A DNA stretch of 64,000 bases from an uncultured Christensenellaceae bacterium (GCA_905234985.1 CAJOJQ010000032.1:9915-73914); one strand, 5' to 3'. Positions 4,031 to 64,000 are shown, numbered from the stretch's first letter. Made by a program: numbers and translations. Notes: generated by a model not told the origin, from the letters alone.

Positions 4031-4110
4031 ACAGCGAAAACCTCTTTGCCGCTCGCCATTAACCCCATTGGGAAAAATGACGGAGTTGGGGATCGCAGGG
4101 GGATTGTTAA

Positions 4111-4436
4111 GGGGAGCGCCCCTTGACTGAAATCCGCACCGGCGGCGTGTACGCCGGGAGGACGGAAAATTTCAGGAAGGAGCGAAGACGACTGGATGAA
4201 ATTTTCCTGCCTTGCGGTTTTTCCGCCCGGGAGCCCTTAGCGTCGAGCGAAGCGAGACTGCGGGCGAGAGGAAAAACCGTAGGGGACGAACCGCCGATGA
4301 CCGCCTGCGGCGGGAATCTCATCGGCGGTGAGATCAGCCGAAAGGGAGCAATCTCCCCATGAAGGGGAGTTGCGACCTTTATTCCGTAAGGGGGAAGGAT
4401 TCCCCCTTACGCGCCATTCAGCGCAAGCTGAATGGC
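4111..4436 (+). ncRNA. Unclassified structured RNA of about 330 nt (copy A of a 4-member family in this window)
   Basis: No credible ORF. Nested hairpins. Alignable along its whole length to the reverse complement of 35545..35871 with compensatory stem changes (GGAAAAUUUC/GAAAUUUUCC vs GAAAAAUUUC/GAAAUUUUUC; CUCCCC/GGGGAG vs GUCCGC/GCGGAC). Confidence 0.5.
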
Positions 4437-4438
4437 AA

Positions 4439-7426
4439 TTACTTTGCCATAGCCTGGGTGATTTCCCAGCCCCAGTTGATTTCGTTCTGGTGGCTGACGG
4501 CGTAGGGGCCGGTGGCTTCCGCCTCGGACATTTTCCGGGGGAAGTGGAGGCAGATATGGCCTGCCAGGTCGTTATTGGGGGTATGGTCCACCTCATGGCC
4601 GTGGCTGTGGATGGAGCCGATATACACCTGCCCGTCGGGGAAGATGACCCACACATACTTGGGCGTCCAGTTGTTCACGCCCACGATCTGGTTCAGGATG
4701 GCGGTATCCGCCGCGGTGGGGGGTTCGGAATCGGCATGCTTGCCGAAGGAGAACATATGCAGGTTAAAGTGCAGGCCGGAGTCCGGATCGTAAATCACCA
4801 CGTCGGGCATGCTGCGGGCGATGGGGCGGATCACGCTCTCCCAGTTGGCGTACTTCACCCGGGAAGCGGCGGGGGCGGTAAAGGCCGTGCTGCCGCTGTT
4901 ATTCGTATTGGTATTCGTACCCGTATTGGTGCTGGGCAGACCCGCCACGCCGGAGGCGGGCACGGCGCTGCTGGAGCTGATGCGATTCAGGGTCATGGTA
5001 CCCGCGATGCCGTCGGAGGTCAGGCCGTTCTGCTTCTGGAAGGCCGCCACGGCGTTCACGGTCTTGGGTCCGTAAATGCCGTCCGCCGCGGTCAGGTAGC
5101 CCAGCTGCACCAGGCGCTGCTGCAAAGCCTTGACCGCCGCGCCGCTGTCGCCCCTTTGCAGGAGCTTGGCGTTGATCTTGACCGCCGTGGCGGCAGAGGT
5201 GGCGGAGGGCTTGGGCGTGGCCGTGGGCTTGGGGGTGGCGGCGGCAATCGCCGTGCCGCTGACGTACAGGCGGGTCAGGGTCTGAGAGCCTGCCACGCCG
5301 TCGGGGTTGAGGCCGTTGGCCCGCTGGAAGTTCTTCACCGCCTGGGCGGTGCCGCTGCCGTACTGGCCGTCCACGGTGCCGGTAAAGTAGCCCAGGGCTT
5401 TCAGCCGGGTTTGCAGGGCGGAGACCAGCTCGCCGCTGCTGCCGGTTTTCAGGGTCTGGTTCACGGGATAAGGCGTGCTGGCCACGATGGGCGTGGGCGA
5501 TACGGAGGCCACGGGCAGGGGCGTGAAGGCGGCCACGGCGGAGGCGGCGTACAGGGCCTGCTGGGTCGCCAGACCGGCCACGCCGTCCACGGAGAGGCCG
5601 TTCTTGCGCTGGAATTCCTTGACGGCTTCGATTTCGTCGCTGTCATATACGCCGTCGGCGCGGCAGTTGTAGTAGCCCAGCTCCATGAGCCGGTATTGCA
5701 GCTTGGTCACTTCCGTGCCCTTGGTGCCGTTCTTCATCACCACCACGTTCTTGGCCGTCAGGGGGGTGGAGGTGGCGGCGGGAACGACGGCGGCGGCCTT
5801 CGGGGAGGGCGTGGGGGTGACGGCCAGCAGGCTCAGCAGGCGCATGGTTTTTTTGCCCGCCACGCCGTCCACGGTCAGCTTATGGTCGGTCTGGAATTTC
5901 TTCACCGCGTTCTGGGTGGCGGCGTCGTACACGCCGGAGGGGGTGGCGGCGGTATAATAGCCCAGGGCTTTCAGGGTGTTTTGCAGCTCGGTCACCTGCC
6001 AGCCCTTATCGCCCACGCTGAATTCCTCCACGGCGTAATTGGGCAGGATGGCCACGCTGACCTTCTTGCCCCGGGCGTTCAGGGGCTTGCCCTCAAAAAT
6101 CAATTTCTGCACCTCGGGGGAAGCGACGCTGTCCTGCCGGATGCCGTTCTTCTTCTGGAACGCCTTCACAGCGGCGGCGGTGTTGGCCCCGTAGCTGCCG
6201 TCCGCCGCCCCGGCGTAAAACTCCAGCTCCCTTAAGGCTTCCTGGAGTACGGACACGTTTTTGCCCGTGCTGCCGGTTTGCAGATAGGCGTAATGCTGCT
6301 GGGCGTCGGCGTCGGTGGACAGCGCCTTGCCGGGGGCGTACTGGGCGGGCACGTGGGCATAATCGGCCACGATGTAGCCCGTATAGGATTTATATTTGAC
6401 GTTCAGGAAATCCCCGGTGATCGCCAGCACCGAAATTTCCGCGCCCTTGGGCACGGTGAGCAGGCGCTGGGAGGAGGTGGAGGCGGATTTCCGCAGGTTC
6501 ACGGAGGCGGTGGTGTAGGTGGTAAAGGGGAAGGTGGCCTTGCCTTCCGTGGGGGGATTGGTGGGAATGGTGGTGGGGGTGGCGGTGGGCTTGGGCGTGG
6601 CGGTGGCCTTGGCGCTGATGGCCGTGGCCGCGTACAGCGCCCTCTGGGTGGCCGCGTCCGCCGTGCCGGTCTGGGTCAGGCCGTTCTTTTTCTGGAACGC
6701 CTTGATGGCGCTCACCGTGGCGCTGCCCGCCGCGCCGTCCACCGTGCCGGTGTAATAGCCCAGCTCTTTCAGCCGGTTTTGCAGGCGCGTCACCGCGTCG
6801 CCCTTGCTGCCGGAGGAGATGGACGCGCCCTCCACGTAGGACACCGTTTTCACAGCGGCGGCCTTGCCCTTGCTGTTCTTGGGCTTTCCTTCAAACAGCA
6901 GGGTCTGGGTGGCGCTGTCCGCCGTGCCGGTCTGGGAAAGGCCGTTCATGCTCTGGAAGGCGGTCACAGCGCCGCGGGTGCCGGAGCCGAAGCTGCCGTC
7001 CACCGCGCCGGTATAAAAGCCTAATTCCTTCAGCGCTTCCTGCACGGCCTTCACCGCGTCCCCCTTGCTGCCGGAATAGAGCAGCTTATAGGCGGAGGAC
7101 GCTCCGGCGGCGGCGGCGGGGGTGGGGGTAATGGCGGGCACGTCGGCGTTTCCGCTGGACGTTTGCAGATACTGCTTCAAGGCGTAGCCCTGTACGCCCT
7201 CATAAACGGCGATATAATAGCCGCCGCTTTCTCCGGTGATCACCGCCATATCCCCGGCGGGGATGGTGGTAAGCACTTTCGCGGAGCTGCTGGGCGACTG
7301 GCGCAGGTTCAGCGCTTCGGTAACGTAGGCCGTGAAGGGATAAGTATCCCCCATCGCGGGCACGGCCCCCAGCAGCAAAGCGGCTGCGATCAGAAAAGCG
7401 CAAACGCGGACGGTAACGGTACGCAT
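4439..7426 (-). CDS. Secreted cell-wall protein: signal peptide, 2 SH3-like domains, 7 peptidoglycan-binding (PG_binding_1-type) repeats, and a C-terminal His-rich domain of unknown type
   Basis: Track ORF 4439..7507. Start moved to the ATG at 7426, preceded by GGAGG and followed by a hydrophobic signal sequence. Seven units match G(S/D)xGxxVxxLQxxLxxLGYYxG...DGxxG. Confidence 0.8.
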   Translation of the reverse strand: MRTVTVRVCAFLIAAALLLGAVPAMGDTYPFTAYVTEALNLRQSPSSSAKVLTTIPAGDMAVITGESGGYYIAVYEGVQGYALKQYLQTSSGNADVPAITPTPAAAAGASSAYKLLYSGSKGDAVKAVQEALKELGFYTGAVDGSFGSGTRGAVTAFQSMNGLSQTGTADSATQTLLFEGKPKNSKGKAAAVKTVSYVEGASISSGSKGDAVTRLQNRLKELGYYTGTVDGAAGSATVSAIKAFQKKNGLTQTGTADAATQRALYAATAISAKATATPKPTATPTTIPTNPPTEGKATFPFTTYTTASVNLRKSASTSSQRLLTVPKGAEISVLAITGDFLNVKYKSYTGYIVADYAHVPAQYAPGKALSTDADAQQHYAYLQTGSTGKNVSVLQEALRELEFYAGAADGSYGANTAAAVKAFQKKNGIRQDSVASPEVQKLIFEGKPLNARGKKVSVAILPNYAVEEFSVGDKGWQVTELQNTLKALGYYTAATPSGVYDAATQNAVKKFQTDHKLTVDGVAGKKTMRLLSLLAVTPTPSPKAAAVVPAATSTPLTAKNVVVMKNGTKGTEVTKLQYRLMELGYYNCRADGVYDSDEIEAVKEFQRKNGLSVDGVAGLATQQALYAASAVAAFTPLPVASVSPTPIVASTPYPVNQTLKTGSSGELVSALQTRLKALGYFTGTVDGQYGSGTAQAVKNFQRANGLNPDGVAGSQTLTRLYVSGTAIAAATPKPTATPKPSATSAATAVKINAKLLQRGDSGAAVKALQQRLVQLGYLTAADGIYGPKTVNAVAAFQKQNGLTSDGIAGTMTLNRISSSSAVPASGVAGLPSTNTGTNTNTNNSGSTAFTAPAASRVKYANWESVIRPIARSMPDVVIYDPDSGLHFNLHMFSFGKHADSEPPTAADTAILNQIVGVNNWTPKYVWVIFPDGQVYIGSIHSHGHEVDHTPNNDLAGHICLHFPRKMSEAEATGPYAVSHQNEINWGWEITQAMAK

Positions 7427-7645
7427 GGGCTTGAACCTCCATACAGCGGCGCGCGAAAAACGCGCCGGAATCCATTCTTTGGGCAAAAAGTGTGGATAAT
7501 GATCCAAGTCTATTTTATTTCAATACCGTAACAATGTCAAGATTTTTATCGCTTTTGCGTAATAATTTTGAAACAAATTCAACTCCCACATCAAGAAAGC
7601 CGCCGGAAAACTCCGACGGCTGGGTATTATCGAATGTAAGGCGGA

Positions 7646-9930: not shown

Positions 9931-10054
9931 GCAGGTAGGAGGTAGGAAGTAGGAGGTAGGAGGTTTATTTTGCTCAAAAGTCCAAGCAAGGTGCCGGGTT
10001 CCTTTGGTAGACTATATAAAACTTCCTACCTCCTACCTCCTACTTCCTACCTGC
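9931..10054. repeat. Heptad-armed long hairpin element, GTAGGAG family (copy H1)
   Basis: Left arm gcaGGTAGGAGGTAGGAAGTAGGAGGTAGGAGGT; right arm is its near-complement. About 56-nt loop ending in GACTATATAAAA. Confidence 0.85.
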
Positions 10055-10086
10055 TATAAATCATCAGTTATTACGAGGTGCATCCT

Positions 10087-14896: not shown

Positions 14897-14956
14897 GGCT
14901 TCATTCTCCTATCTTTTTATGATTTCTTTCTATATAATATTGGGAACACTTTAGGT

Positions 14957-15066
14957 CAGGTAGGAAGTAGGAGGTAGGAGGTAGGAAGTATATATAGTCC
15001 ATAAAGAGATGAACCCATGCTTCTTGATGAACATGATAAAACCTCCTACTTCCTGCCTCCTACCTG
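14957..15066. repeat. Heptad-armed long hairpin element, GTAGGAG family (copy H2; loop inverted relative to H1)
   Basis: Arms cAGGTAGGAAGTAGGAGGTAGGAGGTAGGAAGT / ACCTCCTACTTCCTGCCTCCTACCTG. Loop begins with TATATATAGTCC, the reverse complement of the shared motif. Confidence 0.85.
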
Positions 15067-15102
15067 CCGTAAAACGACCTTTGGCGCTAAGGCTGGACTT
15101 TT

Positions 15103-15774: not shown

Positions 15775-15883
15775 GGTTCTTACCTCCTTTCCCGAGCATG
15801 GCCCCATGATAGACGCGGAACCTTAGACGAGTCTTAAGAAACGAACAAATTTGAAATATTTTTGGTTCAACGAAAAAGTGAAT

Positions 15884-15924
15884 GGGGGAAACCGCTCTTT
15901 GGATGCCAAAGAACGGTTTCCCCC
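15884..15924. repeat. REP-like hairpin GGGGGAAACCNNTCTTTGG / CCAAAGANNGGTTTCCCCC (full copy)
   Basis: 19-bp arms and a 3-nt loop. A second full copy lies at 45317..45357 with similar flanks in the opposite orientation. Confidence 0.8.
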
Positions 15925-15965
15925 ACACCCCTTTCCGAGAAAGCAACAAAGGAATCCGTTAAAAA

Positions 15966-21069: not shown

Positions 21070-21110
21070 TTAATTAATTTCAAGTGTTCCAACAAATCAT
21101 AAAATAGCAA

Positions 21111-21139
21111 TTGACACCATTCGACAATTCCTATACAAT
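21111..21139 (+). promoter_or_regulatory. Consensus promoter of small-ORF transcript B
   Basis: TTGACA-17 nt-TACAAT. Confidence 0.7.
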
Positions 21140-21145
21140 AAAATT

Positions 21146-21323
21146 GCCCCTTCGGGGGCCGAGAGTGAACACAAACGCGCAGGTGGACGAACCGCCGATG
21201 ACCGCCTGTGGCGGGAATTTCATCGGCGGTGAGATCAACCGAAACAAGCAATGTCCGCATGAAGCGGACTTGCGCCGATTGAGGTTGCGGAACGCTCCAT
21301 CCTCCCGAAAGGAGGTGGTGCGA
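21146..21323 (+). ncRNA. Structured 5' leader (copy B of the RNA family) ending in an SD-sequestering hairpin
   Basis: GCCCCUUCGGGGGC hairpin. Conserved core GACGAACCGCCGAUGACCGCCUG...GGUGAGAUCA...GCAAU-stem-CAUGAAG-stem-UUGCG. CCAUCCUCC-CGAAA-GGAGGUGG pairs the SD. Confidence 0.5.
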
Positions 21324-21416
21324 ATGCGTCTTACTTTTCATGTATGGAAGTACACGATAACGATTGTTATTCGTGAAACGCATCGCAAAAAGAACAACCG
21401 CCACTCTGCCAAGTGA
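21324..21416 (+). CDS. 30-aa cationic small protein (candidate type I toxin-like peptide), copy B
   Basis: GGAGGTGGTGCGA-ATG. MRLTFHVWKYTITIVIRETHRKKNNRHSAK. Paralog at 21759..21851 differs mostly by conservative substitutions. Confidence 0.45.
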   Translation: MRLTFHVWKYTITIVIRETHRKKNNRHSAK

Positions 21417-21489
21417 CGGTTGAACTTGCGATGTAGCATCGCGACCTAAACCTAACTTCAAGAGCAACCGCGTGCGTGGTTCACTCTTC
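21386..21489 (-). ncRNA. Predicted cis-antisense RNA to the 3' end of ORF B (about 105 nt)
   Basis: Bounded by the promoter at 21496..21523 and the hairpin AACCGUCACU-UGGCAG-AGUGGCGGUU plus GUUCUUUUU. Confidence 0.45.
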
Positions 21490-21500
21490 GCTTTTATTAT
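21459..21500 (+). terminator. Intrinsic terminator of transcript B
   Basis: AAGAGCAACC-GCGTGCG-TGGTTCACTCTT followed by CGCTTTTATTAT. Confidence 0.6.
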
Positions 21501-21523
21501 ACCCGCTTTTGCGAACTTGTCAA
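21496..21523 (-). promoter_or_regulatory. Consensus promoter of antisense RNA B
   Basis: Minus strand reads TTGACA-16 nt-TATAAT. Confidence 0.7.
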
Positions 21524-21648: not shown

Positions 21649-21676
21649 TTGACATTTCTTCAAATTTGGTTATAAT
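21649..21676 (+). promoter_or_regulatory. Consensus promoter of antisense RNA C
   Basis: TTGACA-16 nt-TATAAT. Confidence 0.7.
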
Positions 21677-21713
21677 TAATAACGAAGAGCGAACCACGCA
21701 CGCGGTTGCTCGT
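21672..21713 (-). terminator. Intrinsic terminator of transcript C
   Basis: Minus strand GAGCAACC-GCGTGCGT-GGTTCGCTC then TTCGTTATTAATT. Confidence 0.55.
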
Positions 21714-21787
21714 CAGTGCAAACTTATCGTCGTGATCTTGCGATCACAGGGACAGCCGTCACTTGGCAGAGTGGCGGTTGTTCTTTT
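21683..21787 (+). ncRNA. Predicted cis-antisense RNA to the 3' end of ORF C (about 105 nt)
   Basis: Starts after the promoter at 21649..21676. Ends at AGCCGUCACU-UGGCAG-AGUGGCGGUU plus GUUCUUUUC. Confidence 0.45.
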
Positions 21788-21851
21788 CGCGATGCGTTTT
21801 CTGGATGACAATCGTCACCGTGTACTTTCCAATGTGGAAGGTAAGACGCAT
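21759..21851 (-). CDS. 30-aa cationic small protein, copy C
   Basis: GGGGGTGATGCGT-ATG. MRLTFHIGKYTVTIVIQKTHREKNNRHSAK. Confidence 0.45.
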   Translation of the reverse strand: MRLTFHIGKYTVTIVIQKTHREKNNRHSAK

Positions 21852-22030
21852 ACGCATCACCCCCTTTCGGGAGGATGGAGCGTTCCGCAACCTCAATCGG
21901 CGCAACTCCCCTTCATGGGGAGATTGCTTGTTTCGGTTGATCTCACCGCCGATGAAAATCCCGCCACAGGCGGTCATCGGCGGTTCGTCCGCCTGCGCGT
22001 TTGTGTTCACTCTTCGGCCCCCGAAGGGGC
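21852..22030 (-). ncRNA. Structured 5' leader (copy C of the RNA family)
   Basis: Mirror image of 21146..21323 with the same core and an SD-pairing hairpin. Confidence 0.5.
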
Positions 22031-22036
22031 GCTTCC

Positions 22037-22065
22037 ATTGTATAGGAAATGTCGATTGGTGTCAA
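22037..22065 (-). promoter_or_regulatory. Consensus promoter of small-ORF transcript C
   Basis: Minus strand TTGACA-17 nt-TACAAT. Confidence 0.7.
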
Positions 22066-22100
22066 TTGCTTTTTCGTCATCGTTTCGGGAATCATCTTGC

Positions 22101-22246: not shown

Positions 22247-23215
22247 TCACGCGATACCCAATTCCTTGCAAAGTTTTTCCCTGTATTCAGGATCGTTGGC
22301 GGCTTTTTCCAAATCTTTTGCCCGTCCCAGGGAAAGCAGCCTGGAAATCAGCGTGGACATTTTGCTTTCACCTTCCGCTCTGCCTTCCACTTTGCCCTCC
22401 GCTCTTCCTTCCGCTCTTCCTTCCGCTCTTCCTTCCGCTCTTCCTTCCGCTCTTCCTTCCGCTCTGCTTTCCCGCCGGATTTGCGCGTCGTGATTTCTCA
22501 TGACGGTTTCATCGTCAAACAACAGCATCATAAGGCTTGTTACCTCCTCTATTCCTTTGGTCAGCAAATAATTTTTCAGGGCGTTATGCTCCACGCAGTA
22601 GTGATATGTTGCCCGCATCGCCTCCGGTGCGTAGCCATATTTCTGAATGTTCTGATCCAGCGTGTGGGCAAACGTCATATACTGGTCGATGATGTCCCCT
22701 TCTTTTCCTTGCTGCACGATTTTAGCGGTGATCTCCACATCGGGCGTATCGCCCGGAAAGAACTCCCTGGCAAAGGACAGCTGTTCAGGCCGTTCTCCCT
22801 TTCCCGTATATATCACGAAAAATTCCGGCTTGGGCAGGGATACGCGCTTCTCGCTGTACACGTCCAGCTCGTGGGCGGTGATGTAGTTTTTGTAGGTGTA
22901 CGCCAGATAGATCAGGATGCGGATCAGGATGTTCACGGACCAGGTGGATTGCGCTTCCACCAGGATCACGAATTTATCCCGCGCCAGAATGCCCAGGTCG
23001 TTATAGGACTTGTTGGTCAGGATATTTCTGATCGTTACGGTGGAAATATCATCCTCCGTGTAATCCGAAAGCTCCGGGTGGAGGGCTTTCAGCAATTCCA
23101 GGCCGTAAGCGGGCGTGCCGAATACCTCCGTGAAAATGGACGCCTTTGCTTCGCGTTTGGCGGTCATACCATCGCCGTTGTTCATCAGCTCGATGAACCG
23201 TTCCTCGTGCTGCAT
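22247..23215 (-). CDS. Rpn-family (YhgA-like, PD-(D/E)XK) recombination-promoting nuclease / putative transposase
   Basis: Start moved to the ATG at 23215 behind GGGGGGTGGA. The family assignment rests on the overall look of the N-terminal region plus the C-terminal (AEGR)n low-complexity tail that I recall as typical of this family. No catalytic residues were identified. Confidence 0.65.
   Translation of the reverse strand: MQHEERFIELMNNGDGMTAKREAKASIFTEVFGTPAYGLELLKALHPELSDYTEDDISTVTIRNILTNKSYNDLGILARDKFVILVEAQSTWSVNILIRILIYLAYTYKNYITAHELDVYSEKRVSLPKPEFFVIYTGKGERPEQLSFAREFFPGDTPDVEITAKIVQQGKEGDIIDQYMTFAHTLDQNIQKYGYAPEAMRATYHYCVEHNALKNYLLTKGIEEVTSLMMLLFDDETVMRNHDAQIRRESRAEGRAEGRAEGRAEGRAEGRAEGKVEGRAEGESKMSTLISRLLSLGRAKDLEKAANDPEYREKLCKELGIA
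22371..22472. repeat. 12-bp tandem repeat (CCTTCCGCTCTT)n encoding (AEGR)n
   Basis: About 8 consecutive near-identical units inside the Rpn-like CDS. Confidence 0.85.
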
Positions 23216-23354
23216 TTCGTCCACCCCCCTTTTTCCACCATCCTGTGGCTTTATTATACCTCTTTGAGCAGAATTATTCAAGGCCTTTGATTTTTCCGGA
23301 TAAAAAAGCCGCTCGGACAGGTTCTTTATGTGAACCCTCCGCGCGGCGTTTTGT

Positions 23355-23909
23355 TTACTGCTCCATTTGGCGGCCAACGATGCCTGCCGCCGTTTCCGCT
23401 ACCTTGATTTCCGTATCGCCCATGCGCGCGCCCTGCTCCCGGGAAAGCAGCAGCACCGCGCCGATGGCCTCCCCGTCCGCGATGATGGGGGACACCACCT
23501 GGGCCGTGTAGCCGGACACGTCCTCCTCGTTGGTCACGGGCACGATTTTGCCGCCGCCCGTGCGGTTGCTGCTCACCGTCTGCCGCGCCTGAATGGCGCT
23601 TTCCAAATCGGGGCTGATGGGCTTATCCCACAGCTCTTTTTTGCTCACGCCGCTGGCCGCCACCACTTGATCCCGGTCCACGATGCACGCGATGTGCCCC
23701 AGGGAGCGGAACAACGATTCCGTGTAGTCCTTGGCAAAGGAACTCATCTCCCCAATGGGGGAATACTTCTTCAAAATCACTTCGCCGTCCCGATCTGTGT
23801 AAATTTCCAGCGGGTCACCCTCGCGGATGCGCAGGGTGCGGCGGATTTCCTTGGGGATCACCACGCGGCCCAGCTCGTCAATCCTTCTTACGATACCTGT
23901 CGCTCGCAA
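23355..23909 (-). CDS. spoVT: Stage V sporulation protein T (AbrB-family regulator)
   Basis: MRATGIVRRIDELGRVVIPKEIRRTLRIREGDPLEIY... SpoVT/AbrB swapped-hairpin N-terminus plus a GAF-like C-terminus. Confidence 0.9.
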   Translation of the reverse strand: MRATGIVRRIDELGRVVIPKEIRRTLRIREGDPLEIYTDRDGEVILKKYSPIGEMSSFAKDYTESLFRSLGHIACIVDRDQVVAASGVSKKELWDKPISPDLESAIQARQTVSSNRTGGGKIVPVTNEEDVSGYTAQVVSPIIADGEAIGAVLLLSREQGARMGDTEIKVAETAAGIVGRQMEQ

Positions 23910-35496: not shown

Positions 35497-35565
35497 CTAC
35501 CACAAAAGCCTGGCCGCATCAAGCGCCTTGCAAGGGCGGACACGGTTCACGCATGAATGAGAAGT
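35497..35565. repeat. Left copy of an imperfect direct repeat of about 70 bp flanking the EPS island
   Basis: CTACCACAAAAGC...CAAGCGCC...GCGGACACGGTTCACGCATGAATGAGAA. Compare 44638..44706. Confidence 0.55.
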
Positions 35566-35871
35566 TACCATTCAGCCTGCGGGTTCATAGTAACGCGCGG
35601 GCGGGTATTGCATACCCCCCGCGAATCCGCAGGCTCAATAGTCGCAAGTCCGCTTCATGCGGACATTGCTCCTTTTCGCCTGATCTCACCACAGGCGGTC
35701 ATCGGCGGTTCGTCCCCCCGCCCGGTTTTTCCTAAAATCCCTATGGGATTTCCGGGCGGAAAAACCGCAAGGTAGAAAAATTTCCTTTGGTCGTCTTCGT
35801 TCCCTTCAGAAATTTTTCGTCCTCCCGGCGTACACGCCGCCGGCGCGGATTACAGTCGGGGGAGTACCCCC
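35545..35871 (-). ncRNA. Unclassified structured RNA (copy D of the family; long form)
   Basis: Its reverse complement aligns with 4111..4436 end to end. It lacks about 20 nt of the core hairpin present in copies A-C. Confidence 0.5.
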
Positions 35872-36013
35872 GACGCCCCCCTCCGATGGTATGCCGCTTG
35901 ACTGTTATTCAGATACGTGAATGGTTACAATGAGAAATTGAGAGTTGACGGGGAGAGGGTAATGAGGTTGATGATCGCCATCAGGAGGCGGGCATTTTCC
36001 ATCCGGGCGCGAA

Positions 36014-45255: not shown

Positions 45256-45316
45256 TTCAATACGTCTCTCCATGAGGAAATTGCCTTTCCTTTACGGCTT
45301 TCTTGGATGGGGGTCT

Positions 45317-45357
45317 GGGGGAAACCATTCTTTGGCCCCCAAAGAATGGTTTCCCCC
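45317..45357. repeat. REP-like hairpin GGGGGAAACCATTCTTTGG / CCAAAGAATGGTTTCCCCC (full copy)
   Basis: 19-bp perfect arms and a 3-nt loop, just downstream of the dnaA stop. Confidence 0.8.
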
Positions 45358-45366
45358 AGAAAAATC

Positions 45367-46689
45367 CTATCGTTCCTGAAGCTGCTGCGTCAGGTCGCTG
45401 ACCAGGGTGGTGAGGGCGGGGGAGGTTTTCATATCACCGGATACCTTCTGGCAGGCGTGGTTCACGGTGGAATGGTCGCGCCCGCCGAAGGAATCGCCGA
45501 TGAGGGTCAGGGGCGCGCCCACGATTTCCCTTGCGATATACATGGCGATCTGCCGGGGCACGGCCACGTCGCGGCTGCGGCGGGGGCCTTTCAAATCGTC
45601 CACGGACACGCTGTAATAAGCGGCCACAGCCTCCATCACGTCGTCGCAGGTGACGCGGCGGGGTTCGGAGCGGGCGAAGATTTCCCGAAGCGCGTCCTCA
45701 GCCAGGCGCTGATCCACGGGCTTGCCCGTTAGGGAGGAATAGGCCACCAGGCGGGTGAGGCACCCTTCCAGCTCCCGCACGTTGTTGGAAACCCGCTCGG
45801 CGATCATGGTAAGGACGGCGTTATCCACTTTCATCAGTTCTTCATCGGCCTTCTGCCGAAGGATGGCCACCCGGGTCTCCAGGTCAGGCTTGGAAATATC
45901 GGCCACCAGGCCCCACTCAAAGCGGCTGCGGAGCCGTTCTTCTAACTTGGCGATTTCCCGGGGCGGCTTGTCCGAGGATAGGATGATCTGCTTTCCGGCG
46001 GTATGCAGGGCGTTGAAGGTGTGGAAAAATTCTTCCTGGGTGCCCGCTTTGCCAGTGAGGAACTGAATATCGTCCACCATCAGCACGTCGATGTTCCGGT
46101 ATTTTTCCCGGAACTCGGCCTGGGTCTTTTTGTTCAGGGAGTTCACCATTTCGTTCATGAACAGCTCGCAGGTGACGTACTTCACCCGCAGCGTGGGCTT
46201 CTGGGACAGCATGTAGTGCCCGATGGCGTGCATCAGGTGGGTCTTGCCCAGCCCCACGCCGCCGTAAATGAACAGGGGATTGTAAGCGTCCGCCGGGGAT
46301 TCCGCCACCGCCAGCGCCGCCGCGTGGGCAAAGCGGTTATTATTGCCCACCACGAAGGTGTCGAAGGTATACTTGGGGTTCAGGCTGCTGTCATCCGCCG
46401 GTTTTTCGCCAGGGGTCACGCCCGCCCGGTACTCATCCGCCTGGGCGGGGGTCAGGAAAATAGCCTTCAGGGGCCGTCCCGCCGCCTCGGACAGGGAATT
46501 GCTCACCAGCACGGCGTAGCGCGGCACCACGAACTGATGGTAGAAATCCGTTACCGCTTCGATAAAGAATTGATCGCCGGAAACGCCCAGCGGACGCAGG
46601 GCGGTGCGGATCCAGGTATTAAAGGTTACTTCCGTCATTTCCAGGTGCATGATCTGGCATGCCTGATCCCAAAGAGCCTGTTTATCCAA
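45367..46689 (-). CDS. dnaA: Chromosomal replication initiator protein DnaA
   Basis: 440 aa. ...NPLFIYGGVGLGKTHLMHAIG... and the C-terminal DnaA-box-binding ...IAMYIAREI...GGRDHSTV.... Confidence 0.95.
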   Translation of the reverse strand: MDKQALWDQACQIMHLEMTEVTFNTWIRTALRPLGVSGDQFFIEAVTDFYHQFVVPRYAVLVSNSLSEAAGRPLKAIFLTPAQADEYRAGVTPGEKPADDSSLNPKYTFDTFVVGNNNRFAHAAALAVAESPADAYNPLFIYGGVGLGKTHLMHAIGHYMLSQKPTLRVKYVTCELFMNEMVNSLNKKTQAEFREKYRNIDVLMVDDIQFLTGKAGTQEEFFHTFNALHTAGKQIILSSDKPPREIAKLEERLRSRFEWGLVADISKPDLETRVAILRQKADEELMKVDNAVLTMIAERVSNNVRELEGCLTRLVAYSSLTGKPVDQRLAEDALREIFARSEPRRVTCDDVMEAVAAYYSVSVDDLKGPRRSRDVAVPRQIAMYIAREIVGAPLTLIGDSFGGRDHSTVNHACQKVSGDMKTSPALTTLVSDLTQQLQER

Positions 46690-47150: not shown

Positions 47151-47352
47151 AAAAATGTGTTCTTATTGATGCGGGGTACGTTGGGGGCGCTCCGCCCCCA
47201 AGCCCCCGACCAGGGGCGTGACGCCCCTGGACCCTCGCTTGCGGAAATATCTTGATGCTTTTGTACAAGTTATTTCGCCAGGTGTGGGTCCAGGGAGGTC
47301 ACCTCCCTGAGCGTCTTCCCCTTGCTTTTTTCGTCAGCAGCCTCCGTCCGGG

Positions 47353-49989: not shown

Positions 49990-49998
49990 CATGCTATT

Positions 49999-50116
49999 AA
50001 GGTAGGAGGTAGGAAGTAGGAGGTTTATTTTGTGGAAACAAATACACAAAATTGGACTTGGTTCATTTTGGAGGACTATATAAAACCTCCTACTTCCTAC
50101 CTTCTACCTCCTACCT
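49999..50116. repeat. Heptad-armed long hairpin element, GTAGGAG family (copy H5)
   Basis: AAGGTAGGAGGTAGGAAGTAGGAGGT / ACCTCCTACTTCCTACCTTCTACCTCCTACCT. Loop is similar to H1 and ends in GGACTATATAAAA. Confidence 0.85.
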
Positions 50117-50152: not shown

Positions 50153-50569
50153 ATGATTTTATTTGTATGTACGGGCAACACCTGCCGGAGTCCCATGGCC
50201 TGCGCCCTGGCACGGGCCGCCGGGGTGGACGCCCAATCCGCCGGGCTGCACGCCTTTCCCGGCGCGCCCGCCTCGCCCAAGGCCATTCGCGCCGCCAAGC
50301 TGTACGGGGCCGATCTCACGGGCCATAAGGCGCGCATGCTGGATGAAAGCATGCTGCGGGACGCGGAGGAAGTGTGGGTCATGACCGAGGCCCACGAAGC
50401 GATGCTGAACATGATGTTTCCCCAATACTCCCGCAAAATCAGCGTGCTTTGGCCCCCCATCCCCGACCCCTACGGCGGCGATGACAGGGACTATGAGAAG
50501 TGCGCTAAGAGGTTGATGGAAGCGATGCAAAGGGCGGGAATACTGCCGAAAGACAGAGTTGAGAGTTAA
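50153..50569 (+). CDS. Low-molecular-weight protein tyrosine/arginine phosphatase
   Basis: VCTGNTCRSPMA (CX5R-S) P-loop at the N-terminus. DPYG motif. Confidence 0.85.
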   Translation: MILFVCTGNTCRSPMACALARAAGVDAQSAGLHAFPGAPASPKAIRAAKLYGADLTGHKARMLDESMLRDAEEVWVMTEAHEAMLNMMFPQYSRKISVLWPPIPDPYGGDDRDYEKCAKRLMEAMQRAGILPKDRVES

Positions 50570-50655
50570 GAGTTGAGAGTTGAGATTTATATGGCCGGAA
50601 TATCCAGAATCTGCAATGTGCGGACCGCAATATCTCAACTCTCCGCTCTCAACTC
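50555..50655. repeat. Heptad-armed long hairpin element, GAGTTGA family (copy H6, loop inverted)
   Basis: AGAGTTGAGAGTTAAGAGTTGAGAGTTGAGAT / ATCTCAACTCTCCGCTCTCAACTC. The left arm overlaps the last 5 codons and the stop of the phosphatase gene. Confidence 0.8.
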
Positions 50656-52214: not shown

Positions 52215-52322
52215 GATGCACGATCCTTTCCAAATGAGAATAAAAAGAAGAGCCCGCCGAAGCAAAGCTCCCTCAAACCAATGCGACAAAACGATTTCGA
52301 TCCAAAACGGAAAGGATCGTCG

Positions 52323-52488
52323 CCTCTGTCCTTTTGCCTGAGAGATTAGCCCTTTTCGGGCTTTGCACCTTCGGCCCCCGGTCTTTCTCCGGGCTTCTCC
52401 AGAGTGTCATCCGCATACAGTCCCGCCGCCCTTGGCAGCGCCTGAGAGTGTTGCTCCTTCGGCTATCCTTTGGGATATTTCCTGCATG
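52323..52488 (-). ncRNA. Tandem glycine riboswitch
   Basis: Minus strand, aptamer I: CAUGCAG-GAAA-UAUCC..GGAUA-GCCGAAGGAGCAAC-ACUCUCAGGC..GGGACUGUAUG. Aptamer II: CUCUGGAGA..GCCGAAGGUGCAA..CUCUCAGGCAAAAGGACAGAG. Upstream of an AGCS transporter gene. Confidence 0.8.
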
Positions 52489-58661: not shown

Positions 58662-58719
58662 CGCTTATGGCTTTTTTGGAAGGAGTTCTGGGGGGAAACC
58701 ATTTCAATCAGTCCCCCAG
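58662..58719. repeat. Variant copy of the GGGGGAAACC REP-like element overlapping the dapF stop
   Basis: ATGGCTTTTTTGGAAGGAGTTCTGGGGGGAAACCATTT matches the flank plus left arm. The right side is replaced by CAATCAGTCCCCCAG. Confidence 0.5.
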
Positions 58720-59544
58720 CCATTCCCCATCATAAACAAACGCCGCGGGGCCGGTCTGGTACACGTGGTTATCCTCGGCGCTCCATTGCAATTGCAGGTT
58801 GCCGCCGGAGAGCTTCATTTGCACCGTGCGGTTGGAAAGGCCCCCCAGCACGGCGGCCACCAGGGACGCGCACGCGCCGGTGCCGCAGGCCAGGGTTTCG
58901 CCCGCGCCGCGCTCCCACACGCGCATTTGCAGGATGTTGCGGTCGATGACCCGCACGAATTCCACGTTGGTGCGACGGGGGAACAGAGGATGATGCTCGA
59001 TCATGGGGCCGATGGTGGGCAGGTCGATGACTTCCGGGTCGCGGACGAAGACCACGGAATGGGGGTTGCCCATGTTGACGCAGGTGATGAACCAGGTCTG
59101 GCCCAAAATTTGCAGCCGATGGCGCAACACCAGTTCCCCGGGCAAATCCACGGGGATCAGGCGGGGGTTCAGCTCCGGCGTGCCCATATCGGCTTTGACG
59201 CGGGCCACCTTGCCGTTTTCCACGGTCAGCCACAGCTGCTTCACGCCGCCCTTGGTTTCAATGGTCAGCTCGGTTTTGTCGGTCATGCCCCGATCGTACA
59301 CGTACTTGCCGATGCAGCGCAGGGCGTTGCCGCACATTTCGGCCTCGCTGCCGTCGGCGTTGAAGATGCGCATGGCGAAATCCGCCCCGTCCGCCGGTTC
59401 GATCAGCACTATGCCGTCCGCCCCCGCGCCGAAATGGGGTTTGGACATGACGATGGCCATCCGCTCCGGGTTTTCGATCACTTCCTCAAAACAGTTGACG
59501 AACAGATAATCGTTGCCGATGCCGTGCATTTTCGTGAATTTCAT
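58708..59544 (-). CDS. dapF: Diaminopimelate epimerase
   Basis: ATG at 59544 behind GGGGGG. MKFTKMHGxGNDY...CGNALRC...ACGTGA catalytic Cys motifs. Confidence 0.93.
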   Translation of the reverse strand: MKFTKMHGIGNDYLFVNCFEEVIENPERMAIVMSKPHFGAGADGIVLIEPADGADFAMRIFNADGSEAEMCGNALRCIGKYVYDRGMTDKTELTIETKGGVKQLWLTVENGKVARVKADMGTPELNPRLIPVDLPGELVLRHRLQILGQTWFITCVNMGNPHSVVFVRDPEVIDLPTIGPMIEHHPLFPRRTNVEFVRVIDRNILQMRVWERGAGETLACGTGACASLVAAVLGGLSNRTVQMKLSGGNLQLQWSAEDNHVYQTGPAAFVYDGEWLGD

Positions 59545-59566: not shown

Positions 59567-59655
59567 AGAGTGGAGAGTTGAGAGTGGAGAGTTGAGATTA
59601 ATAGCGGAATATCAGACAAAATCAATCTCAACTCTCAACTCTCAACTCTCAACTC
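59567..59655. repeat. Heptad-armed hairpin element, GAGTTGA family (copy H7, short loop)
   Basis: AGAGTGGAGAGTTGAGAGTGGAGAGTTGAGAT / ATCTCAACTCTCAACTCTCAACTCTCAACTC with a 26-nt loop. Confidence 0.85.
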
Positions 59656-62485: not shown

Positions 62486-64000
62486 ATGAAAAACAACCGT
62501 TTATTGAGTTTGATCCTCTCTCTTATGATGCTGTTCACCGTCGTTTTCCCCACCGGCGTGTACGCTGAGGAGCCGGAAGGACAGGAAATCGTCGCCGAAG
62601 CGCAGCCTGCTGCCCCGGAAGCGAAGCCCGCTGCTGAAGAGCAGCCTGCTGCCGAGGAACAGCCCGCTGCTCAGGAGCAGCCCGCCGCTCAGGAACAGCC
62701 CGCCGCTCAGGAGCAGCCCGCCGCCCAGGAGCAGCCCGCCGCCCAGGAGCAGCCCGCCGACGAAGAACAGCCCGCCGCTCAAGAGCAGCCCGCTGCTGAA
62801 GAGCAGCCTGCTGACGAAGAACAGCCCGCTGACGAACAGCAGCCCGCTGACGAACAGCAGCCCGCTGACGAACAGCAGCCCGCTGACGAAGAACAGCCCG
62901 CTGACGAAGAGCAGCCCGCTGATGAAGAACAGCCCGCTGACGAAGAGGCGGAAGAAGAACCCGCGCTTTTTGAACGCGGCTATGTCCGCATGGCGAACGG
63001 CGCGACCACCGTTTACGCTTCCGAATCCAGGCGCGATGAACTGGGCACGCTGGCCGGCGGCTCCGTGGTGTACGCCGTGGTTTCTTCCCGCGCGGCCGAC
63101 GAAGCGGATACCTGGCTGAGGATCGTCTTTGACACCAAGGAAGCCAGGGAAGCGGACGGCGCGCTGGTGAGCGGCTATGTGCAGTTCAAGAGCGTTTCCG
63201 TGCTGTCCGAGGAAGCGGTCGCCCAGCTGCAGCAGTCCCTGAAAAACGATCACGCGGTCCGCAGCTATGGCGACAATCCGCTGCCTGCGGTTTCCTTCAC
63301 TCTGAAAGTGGAAGAAGCTGTTGAACAGCAGCCCGCTGACGAAGAGCAGCCCGCTGACGAACAGCAGCCCGCTGACGAAGAACAGCCCGCTGACGAACAG
63401 CAGCCCGCCGACGAACAGCAGCCCGCTGACGAACAGCAGCCTGCTGACGAAGAGCAGCCCGCCAACGAAGAACAGCCCGCTGACGAACAGCAGCCCGCTG
63501 CTGAAGAGCAGCCCGCTGACGAACAGCAGCCCGCTGCTGAAGAGCAGCCCGCTGACGAACAGCAGCCCGCTGACGAACAGCAGCCCGTCGACGAAGAAGA
63601 ACCCGACGATGATGAAGACGAAGACGACGACGGAGAACCGACCATTGTGATTGGCGCGCTGGAAGGAGAAACGGTAACGGATGATCCGATGGGTTCTCCC
63701 GCCGCTAAGCCCCAATTCACTATCCAGCCGGAAGCCACTATGGTCGAATTAGGCGCAGAAGTCACTTTCACCGCCGCCGCGTCCGACGCTACCAGCTATC
63801 AGTGGCAGATCGACAAGAACAACGGCAAGGGCTGGACCAAGCTGAGCAACGGCACCACCTGGCGGATCGCCGTCACCGACGAAGGAACAACGACTCTTGC
63901 CTTTGACTCGACCGCTGCCAGAGCGACCTACAAATACCGCTGCGTTGCCACCAATTCAAACGGCAGCACCGGCTCCGACGAAGCGACCTTCACCATTGGC
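62486..64000 (+). CDS. Secreted repeat protein: two (E/Q)EQPA(D/A/E) hexapeptide arrays, an SH3-like module, then Ig-like domain(s); 3' partial
   Basis: AAGGAG-N7-ATG. Signal peptide MKNNRLLSLILSLMMLFTVVFPTGVYA. The frame is open to the window end, so it is absent from the ORF track. Confidence 0.75.
   Translation, partial: MKNNRLLSLILSLMMLFTVVFPTGVYAEEPEGQEIVAEAQPAAPEAKPAAEEQPAAEEQPAAQEQPAAQEQPAAQEQPAAQEQPAAQEQPADEEQPAAQEQPAAEEQPADEEQPADEQQPADEQQPADEQQPADEEQPADEEQPADEEQPADEEAEEEPALFERGYVRMANGATTVYASESRRDELGTLAGGSVVYAVVSSRAADEADTWLRIVFDTKEAREADGALVSGYVQFKSVSVLSEEAVAQLQQSLKNDHAVRSYGDNPLPAVSFTLKVEEAVEQQPADEEQPADEQQPADEEQPADEQQPADEQQPADEQQPADEEQPANEEQPADEQQPAAEEQPADEQQPAAEEQPADEQQPADEQQPVDEEEPDDDEDEDDDGEPTIVIGALEGETVTDDPMGSPAAKPQFTIQPEATMVELGAEVTFTAAASDATSYQWQIDKNNGKGWTKLSNGTTWRIAVTDEGTTTLAFDSTAARATYKYRCVATNSNGSTGSDEATFTIG
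62600..62946. repeat. 18-bp tandem repeat array 1 (GAA/CAG CAG CCC GCT GAC GAA type)
   Basis: About 19 consecutive units read directly. Confidence 0.85.
63323..63594. repeat. 18-bp tandem repeat array 2
   Basis: About 15 consecutive units of the same type. Confidence 0.85.

Follow-up and report, generated by a model that had tools for sequence, protein, structure and literature searches.

The Correia elements of Neisseria and MITEAba12 are bacterial miniature inverted-repeat transposable elements (MITEs), and the pneumococcal BOX elements (boxA-boxB-boxC) and the REP/BIME sequences of Escherichia coli are modular intergenic repeats. Some multicopy structured RNAs on mobile DNA that were described earlier proved to be guide RNAs or ribozymes, and HEARO RNAs looked similar before they were recognized as the guide RNAs of IscB. 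Here we describe a repeat family found in a stretch of 64,000 nucleotides (nt) from an uncultured Christensenellaceae bacterium (GCA_905234985.1 CAJOJQ010000032.1:9915-73914), which we call the window. An original prediction had taken positions 4111 to 4436 as one of four copies of an unclassified structured RNA family of about 330 nt. We consider it probable that two of these copies (copies 1 and 2) are worn MITEs that carry a separate, optional, covarying cassette of 108 to 111 nt. The other two (copies 3 and 4) are intact cassettes in the leaders of small open reading frames (ORFs).

The long copies resemble bacterial MITEs, as they are short (280 to 450 bp), lack an ORF, have terminal inverted repeats (TIRs) and target-site duplications of fixed length, occur in many intergenic copies, and would give strongly folding transcripts. 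They differ in that the interior is a mosaic of optional structured modules and in that the cassette also occurs outside MITEs, is better conserved than the backbone, and shows extensive compensatory change. With BOX and REP/BIME the family shares the mosaic of modules in variable number, the strong hairpins, the intergenic position with a preference for gene 3' ends, and tandem or chimeric arrangements. However, the cassette is longer, has two arms with noncanonical pairs, and contains about 30 invariant unpaired bases; some of its hosts have classical TIRs and target-site duplications, and no RAYT-type gene was identified. Like the HEARO/IscB omega-RNA and the IS605 TnpB-associated RNAs, the cassette is multicopy, structured, linked to mobile DNA, and present in copies without an ORF. 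It differs from them in having no Rfam match at E<=10 and no adjacent nuclease gene, and it lacks a unique guide-like flank, since the flanking sequences belong to recurring classes.

Copies 1 and 2 and the MITE family

That there are four copies in the window is confirmed by the exact 23-mer GACGAACCGCCGATGACCGCCTG, which occurs at 4285 and 21186 on the plus strand and at 21967 and 35692 on the minus strand; none of 100 shuffles gave this 23-mer, and none was expected. The alignment of 4111-4436 from end to end with the reverse complement of 35545-35871 also holds, with insertions and deletions, but the boundaries do not, as the repeated long units are those delimited in Table 1. The central section does recur at the two leaders, and only this part recurs there. 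The region has no credible ORF, as was predicted; it contains only short overlapping ORFs of at most 139 amino acids, which we judge to be high-GC noise. It was also said to match no known RNA family, and Rfam 15 agrees: no match was found at the four copies when the whole window was searched at the gathering threshold, and only chance-level matches appeared on copies 1 and 3 at E<=10. The models searched included HEARO, ROOL, raiA, IS605-orfB, the self-cleaving ribozymes, and the riboswitches.

Copy 2 has all the marks of a transposed element. When ten long copies are aligned, its ends are sharp (junctions ...caatTTCTCATT|GTAACCATTCACG ... GCTGAATGGTAAC|TTCTCATTcatg), it has a TIR pair of 12 nt of the GTAACCATTCAC / GTGAATGGTAAC type, and it is flanked by a perfect 8-bp target-site duplication, TTCTCATT, at 35929-35936 and 35556-35563. 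We scanned all fetched DNA (1.2 Mb; loci fetched from related genomes carry L-numbers) for inverted TIR-like ends that lie 150 to 5000 bp apart and have 8-bp flanks differing at no more than one base. This unbiased scan yielded exactly eight elements of 278 to 446 bp, one of which was copy 2, and seven of the eight have a perfect 8-bp duplication (TTCTCATT, CACACTTT, GATCACGT, CATGGAAT, AACAGCAG, ATCCGCAT, and ATCTTGCC). The family that emerges consists of ORF-less elements of about 280 to 450 bp with TIRs of 12 to 13 bp, GT(T/A)AC(C/T)A(T/C)TCA(C/G) (end motif GT(T/A)ACCATTCAC). In L042, both TIRs are altered in step (GTTACTACTCA / TGAGTAGTAAC). TIRs, a target-site duplication fixed at 8 bp, a small size without a transposase ORF, and a multicopy state were all found; 10 long-form copies are present among the 108 genome loci listed.

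Two of the eight scanned elements, L012 (279 bp) and L076 (442 bp), have no cassette and yet have target-site duplications of their own, and therefore the core is dispensable for transposition of the MITE. The element at L076:7302-7743 has an optional insert of about 160 nt in the second hairpin region, and the one at L036:6772-7217 has an optional insert of about 90 nt inside the CGGUUUUUCC/GGAAAAACCG helix. These inserts show that the cassette is not the only exchangeable module of the MITE. That helix, with inserts of variable length enclosed, had been described in the original prediction and is present in the alignment of the long copies, and so are the two paired changes listed with it, GGAAAAUUUC/GAAAUUUUCC versus GAAAAAUUUC/GAAAUUUUUC and CUCCCC/GGGGAG versus GUCCGC/GCGGAC. 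The stem described as closing the GGUGAGAUCA loop is something else, namely the base of the second hairpin arm of the cassette (CANNC/GNNUG), whose partner strand lies about 45 nt downstream.

Copy 1 is older and degraded. Its ends, GCTCGCCATTAAC / GAATGGCAATTA, are degenerate versions of the TIRs, and it is flanked by a 7-nt direct repeat, CTTTGCC, at 4044-4050 and 4442-4448. Its cassette lacks the 10 nt GAGGCUGCGG, which form the 3' strand of the basal helix of arm 2, and the cassette of copy 2 has lost P2, the inner hairpin, together with the 3' strand of P1 through an 18-nt deletion. In neither copy is there a sigma-70-like promoter, and neither has a convincing terminator. The two long copies are thus worn, decaying MITE copies with broken cassettes and are not independent small RNA genes. 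The terminal TTA of copy 1 (4439-4441) is the stop codon TAA of a minus-strand gene (4439-7507) for a cell wall protein of 1022 amino acids with SleB-like and peptidoglycan-binding repeats, which ends in ...AMAK*. Insertion of the MITE probably reshaped the C terminus of this protein.

We propose that a DDE transposase that is encoded elsewhere and is IS66-like would mobilize the MITEs in trans. The ends point to the IS66 family because they start with GTAAC and come with an 8-bp duplication: members of this family have inverted repeats that start with GTAAGCG or GTAACCG and 8-bp direct repeats (PMC11946415, PMC12888890). Copy 2, L054, and L061, which start with GTAACC, share both features, GTAA(G/C)C and the 8-bp duplication, whereas the other MITEs start with GTTAC. 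Further differences from IS66 are that no transposase gene was found here and that the TIRs are 12 to 13 bp long compared to 20 to 30 bp.

The cassette, its settings, and its fold

What all copies have in common is the cassette. In an all-against-all BLAST comparison only about 115 nt were shared by all of them, from -50 to +65 around GGTGAGATCA, and the flanks fell into subfamilies. The core measures 108 to 111 nt and not about 90 nt, as had been estimated, and has the layout GGACGAA - arm 1 - GGUGAGAU - arm 2 - CGGA, in which ACGAAC is invariably preceded by GG and UGCGG is usually trailed by A. It is a discrete module with sharp boundaries and is optional in its hosts. The junctions are G-rich and inconsistent, with no clear target duplication and no TIRs.

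The settings in which the cassette occurs are very diverse, with at least 40 distinct 5' contexts and 42 distinct 3' contexts, among them the tips of three different host hairpins and the small-ORF leader. Two host motifs occur mostly without it (30 of 41 occurrences of type 1 and 40 of 67 of type 2), and these cassette-less repeats outnumber the cassette in related genomes. Type 1 has the consensus GCUUUCUYGGAAGGGG followed by a long GGGGGAAACC...GGUUUCCCCC hairpin, and at type 1 loci elsewhere the cassette stands between the GCUUUCUCGGAAAGGGG part and this hairpin. Type 2 consists of GGGUCCAGGG-hairpin-CCCUGG followed by a CUGGGG...CCCCAG hairpin, and here the cassette replaces a hairpin tip (CCAGG[core]N5-8CCCUGG versus CCAGGG-NNN-UCA-NNN-CCCUGG). 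In another module, it lies in the loop of GGCGGCU-GAA-AGCCGCC; in a composite repeat of 520 bp, it lies between other modules; and at several loci a complete cassette is nested in the P2 loop of a truncated one. Chimeric and truncated copies indicate frequent recombination. Whichever reading of the cassette holds, it would appear to move or to be exchanged as a unit.

The family is this cassette of about 110 nt, with dozens of copies per genome. We scanned one genome per species with a degenerate pattern placed on the unpaired parts of the central section and obtained at least 108 loci, of which at least 105 are in 19 species-level metagenome-assembled genomes (MAGs) of uncultured rumen or gut Clostridia; the three remaining matches are due to chance. 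The largest number in a single rumen Clostridia MAG was at least 19. Metagenome contigs gave at least 120 more loci. Two pattern scans of viral contigs gave no matches and hence no hint that the family comes from phages. Many of the genome matches are no more than 100 nt away from a true contig end, and in other assemblies of the strain from which the window comes, contigs break off within copies 1 and 2, which shows that the repeat breaks assemblies. Empty sites of copies 1 and 2 were sought by exact-protein look-up of the flanking genes, but every contig obtained stopped within the cassette. In a given genome, many copies have the same sequence, and different variants also coexist within one genome. 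Most of the untruncated matches score near the family maximum in the covariance-model tables, and we therefore take most copies to be intact.

The collection of homologues added about 170 distinct copies and bore out the covariation. Arm 1 is a helix, P1, that encloses the hairpin P2 with a 5-nt bulge; arm 2 starts with the basal helix CANNC/GNNUG, followed by tandem G.A/A.G pairs, two A-U pairs, and the hairpin P3. For the genome set (alignment A2, 72 distinct copies), the structure given by RNAalifold has 32 pairs, and compensatory changes are seen at 14 of these. When a structure of 31 pairs is scored on this set, 98.6% of the cells are paired, and 14 pairs show double changes, which amount to 174 cells compared to 45 +/- 4 after shuffling and at most 23 with slid partners. 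A metagenome set of independent loci, collected with covariance model R1 (103 matches, 98 distinct sequences), gave 98.7% paired cells and double changes at 21 of the 31 pairs (323 cells versus 75.5 +/- 6.6 shuffled and at most 38 slid), and in its slid controls only 32 to 45% of the cells were paired. Variants of P1 include CCGCCGAUGA/UCAUCGGCGG, CCUCGGACGG/CCGUCCGAGG, CCGCAGGCAA/UUGCCUGCGG, and CCUCAAGCAA/UUGCUUGAGG, besides others. Mutual information added one more Watson-Crick covarying pair and an exchange between G.A and A.C.

The cassette is also better conserved than the sequences that carry it. When four 520-bp repeats of a single genome are compared, it is 96% identical, against 77% for the rest, and among seven long-form MITEs it is 91% identical, compared to 72%. 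In the small-ORF module, copies 3 and 4 agree at 95% in the cassette, 84% in the ORF, and 69% in the 3' part, and in comparison with another species the cassette (87 to 90%) again exceeds the ORF (80 to 82%) and is the best-conserved segment. Together, these results suggest that the fold has been kept by selection acting on a single-stranded nucleic acid. From the claim of a functional RNA family we can retain an unclassified nucleic acid fold with genuine covariation that is better conserved than its carrier repeats; the unit of about 330 nt is a MITE and not a four-member RNA gene family. The original prediction had named fragments of a protein-coding mobile element as a finding that would overturn it. 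The element is indeed mobile, but it is noncoding.

Three resemblances to known RNAs were considered and rejected. The stretch CCGAUGA-stem-GAAU looks by eye like the CUGAUGA-stem II-GAAA of a hammerhead ribozyme, but these bases covary as part of P1 and are replaced in other copies. Group II intron domain V has no Rfam match here, and its bulge would have to be on the other strand. The cassette-less type 2 element was compared with a hepatitis delta virus (HDV)-like fold, but its strands come in an order that does not fit.

Copies 3 and 4 and other features of the window

Copies 3 and 4 lie in the arms of an inverted repeat (21102-21432 and 21743-22074). In the left module, a sense promoter at 21111-21139 (11 of 12 consensus matches) is followed by a 5' hairpin, the cassette, a hairpin (CCUCC-CGAAA-GGAGG) over the Shine-Dalgarno sequence, and an ORF of 30 amino acids at 21324-21416, MRLTFHVWKYTITIVIRETHRKKNNRHSAK. 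A convergent antisense promoter lies at 21523-21496 on the minus strand (12 of 12 matches), and a terminator-like antisense hairpin at 21422-21395(-) also encodes the C terminus of the peptide. In the right module, which has the same hairpins, the near-consensus promoter is at 22065-22037(-), the antisense promoter is at 21649-21676(+), and the ORF at 21759-21851(-) encodes MRLTFHIGKYTVTIVIQKTHREKNNRHSAK. Between the two convergent ORFs there are five synonymous changes and six others, most of them conservative, and the two central promoters, which match the consensus perfectly, fire outward, antisense over the 3' ends of the ORFs. One further instance of this 420-nt module, with 81% identity, was found in another species (L085), and the small ORF has only three copies in all fetched DNA.

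In its layout the module resembles a type I toxin-antitoxin pair, but the peptide is atypical. As in bsrG/SR4, and for copies 3 and 4 only, there is a small ORF with a long structured leader, a Shine-Dalgarno sequence occluded in a hairpin, a convergent antisense promoter whose RNA would overlap the ORF, a terminator overlapping the 3' end of the ORF, and a duplicated locus. Toxins of this type are usually hydrophobic membrane peptides, whereas the peptide here is basic and lacks a long hydrophobic stretch that could form a membrane helix. It has no Pfam or NCBIfam family match, and it is absent from the records. The Shine-Dalgarno hairpin is matched below threshold by the BsrG model (E = 0.03; 18.4 bits against a gathering score of 55). 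Near the module, positions 22359-22490 within a minus-strand ORF (22247-23377; 376 amino acids) contain a 12-nt tandem repeat that encodes (RAEG)n, and the 376-amino-acid protein weakly resembles the PD-(D/E)XK nuclease-family transposases (PF12784; E = 0.056, below the cutoff).

Table 1. Copies of the cassette, their carriers, and cassette-less relatives in the window
Feature	Coordinates	Strand	Basis
Copy 1, degraded long-form MITE, 391 bp	4051..4441	+	Full-length alignment with six relatives bounded by TIRs and target-site duplications
Cassette in copy 1, damaged	4281..4391	+	Covariance model, 102 bits; non-pairs in arm-2 basal helix
Cassette-less type 1 element, GCUUUCUCGGAAAGGGG then long hairpin GGGGGAAACCG...CGGUUUCCCCC	15859..15949	-	Cassette stands between the two parts elsewhere
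Left small-ORF module	21111..21523	+	Promoters, ORF, fold; same module in L085
Copy 3, intact cassette in 5' leader of small ORF	21182..21292	+	134.2 bits, all helices intact
Right small-ORF module, mirror image	21649..22065	-	Inverted repeat, ORFs, promoters
Copy 4, intact cassette in leader of mirror-image small ORF	21883..21993	-	131.7 bits
Copy 2, long-form MITE, 365 bp	35564..35928	-	TIRs GTAACCATTCAC... / ...CTGAATGGTAAC and target-site duplication; unbiased scan for both
Cassette in copy 2, damaged	35625..35718	-	Covariance model, 84.8 bits; 2 nt in place of 20 model positions
Cassette-less type 1 element, directly after 3' end of predicted minus-strand gene (~45367-46650)	45290..45362	+	Predicted gene
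Two cassette-less type 2 elements, head to head, GGGUCCAGGG-hairpin-CCCUGG...	47180..47330	.	Cassette replaces tip of first hairpin elsewhere

Several other repeats are present in the window. Another short structured intergenic repeat without a cassette lies at about 58665-58725(+). Long intergenic inverted repeats at 9932-10060, 14950-15072, and 49992-50116, and also at 50556-50599 and 59612-59655, have arms built of low-complexity words, (AGGTAGGAGG)n / (CCTCCTACCT)n and (GAGTTGAGAG)n; analogous arms of other words adjoin cassette copies in L018, L050, and L080. Positions 62504-63706 contain two blocks of an 18-nt periodic repeat, with about 15 units each and 399 nt apart. A glycine riboswitch aptamer at 52316-52412(-) (RF00504; 55.8 bits, E = 8.5e-09) is the one feature of the window that exceeds an Rfam threshold.

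Competing explanations and what the family may mean

Several observations weigh against the reading of copies 1 and 2 as worn MITEs with a separate, selected cassette. The ends of copy 1 are degenerate, and its flanking repeat has only 7 nt and is slightly out of register. The 1.2 Mb of fetched DNA yielded no autonomous element bounded by such TIRs, and a scan of metagenomes with the TIR pattern gave 0 matches. The IS66 assignment uses two end features only, and most copies start with GTTAC and not with GTAA. With regard to the cassette, its higher conservation could stem from gene conversion among copies and not from function, the diversity of the alignment is low (effective sequence number, 1.03), and the invariance of the loops is partly imposed because the patterns used for collection required the loop sequences. 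G-U cells (13) and A-C cells (18) are about equally frequent in a manual count of the RNAalifold pair types, and these counts do not reveal the active strand, since A-C is G-U on the other strand. The orientation relative to neighboring genes is mixed.

A family of trans-acting structured RNA genes of about 330 nt, with four functional transcription units, is barely credible as an explanation. The long copies do fold far better than shuffled sequences (z = -7.9), paired substitutions occur in several of their helices, and Rfam has no name for them. However, much of the folding energy comes from pairing of one TIR with the other, the long units have the TIRs and 8-bp duplications of a mobile element, and copies 1 and 2, besides lacking a promoter and a terminator, are deleted in the most conserved part. 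Moreover, the long form is only one of many mosaics around the same core. It is also highly improbable that the covariation has no function and is only the imprint of a few subfamilies in a repeat that was amplified recently and homogenized by gene conversion. The low effective sequence number, the many identical copies within a genome, and the recombination seen in chimeric and truncated copies would all fit such a history, but it does not account for at least eight P1 sequences, four P2 variants, and four to five pair types at single positions that all still pair, nor for the excess of double changes over shuffled and slid controls. As variants coexist in one genome, simple genome-wide homogenization does not explain the pattern of conservation either.

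The cassette itself could be a tiny mobile element of single-stranded DNA, IS200/IS605- or REP-like, in which a Y1 (HUH) transposase reads the two subterminal hairpins. We regard this as unlikely, although it would explain the sharp boundaries without TIRs or a clear target duplication, the two imperfect hairpins with invariant single-stranded linkers, the large number of contexts, the insertion into hairpin tips and into the P2 loop of another cassette, and the similar numbers of G-U and A-C cells, as expected when no RNA strand is favored. Against it, the left flank has no conserved target of 4 to 5 nt (the GG before ACGAAC may be the cassette's own), and tblastn for a Y1 transposase in the 1.2 Mb around the copies, with an IS608 TnpA query, found nothing, which is weak evidence. 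In addition, conservation after insertion exceeds that of the host repeats, which is not predicted for a purely selfish element, and tandem G.A pairs with an exchange between G.A and A.C are typical of RNA motifs. More doubtful is a cis-regulatory leader, either riboswitch-like or controlling a toxin mRNA, for which the 5' untranslated region of the small ORF would be home and the other copies dead by-products. Copies 3 and 4 and that in L085 do lie between a near-consensus promoter and the Shine-Dalgarno hairpin of a conserved ORF of 30 amino acids, where the cassette is the best-conserved part, and in L033 and L058 it directly adjoins the start codon of a gene for an ABC-transporter ATPase. 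However, only 3 of about 220 copies among the matches listed precede the small ORF, and most of the many copies are intact. At the listed loci, where genes were predicted from codon usage with a caller trained on the fetched loci, the downstream gene is convergent in 63 of 96 cases, usually at 25 to 100 nt, and has the same orientation in 33, whereas the upstream gene shows no bias (30 same, 32 opposite). This bias speaks against a classical leader or riboswitch and fits repeats that settle at gene 3' ends. The neighboring genes are unrelated to one another; no transposase, nuclease, or other gene recurs beside the copies, and only ABC-transporter-type paralogues cluster.

Returning to worn MITEs with a separate cassette, our best guess is that the cassette would act as RNA, as a module for protein binding, processing, or stabilization. 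Among the readings of the cassette, we give a role at the RNA level about an even chance, and the strongest case for it is made by copies 3 and 4, with their strong promoters and their place in a toxin-like mRNA leader. That the cassette is a new class of mobile functional RNA, spreading as a unit into hairpin loops and mRNA leaders, seems improbable to us. If it were true, the cassette could process itself or guide its own insertion, or it could be a distributed regulator, a genome-wide antisense brake on the toxin-like mRNA. Two thirds of the listed copies are placed such that read-through from the convergent gene would give RNA antisense to the leader cassette.

What had been claimed as a 330-nt RNA gene family thus becomes a set of ordinary MITEs with an unusual cargo. 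A cassette of this kind is not expected of junk repeats, because it is noncoding and optional, appears in dozens of settings, and has been conserved better than the elements that carry it. In practical terms, it breaks short-read assemblies of these genomes. The source clade is known solely from rumen and gut metagenome assemblies, and such elements can be found there only by sequence analysis. The small-ORF and antisense module offers a concrete setting in which the cassette may be tested.

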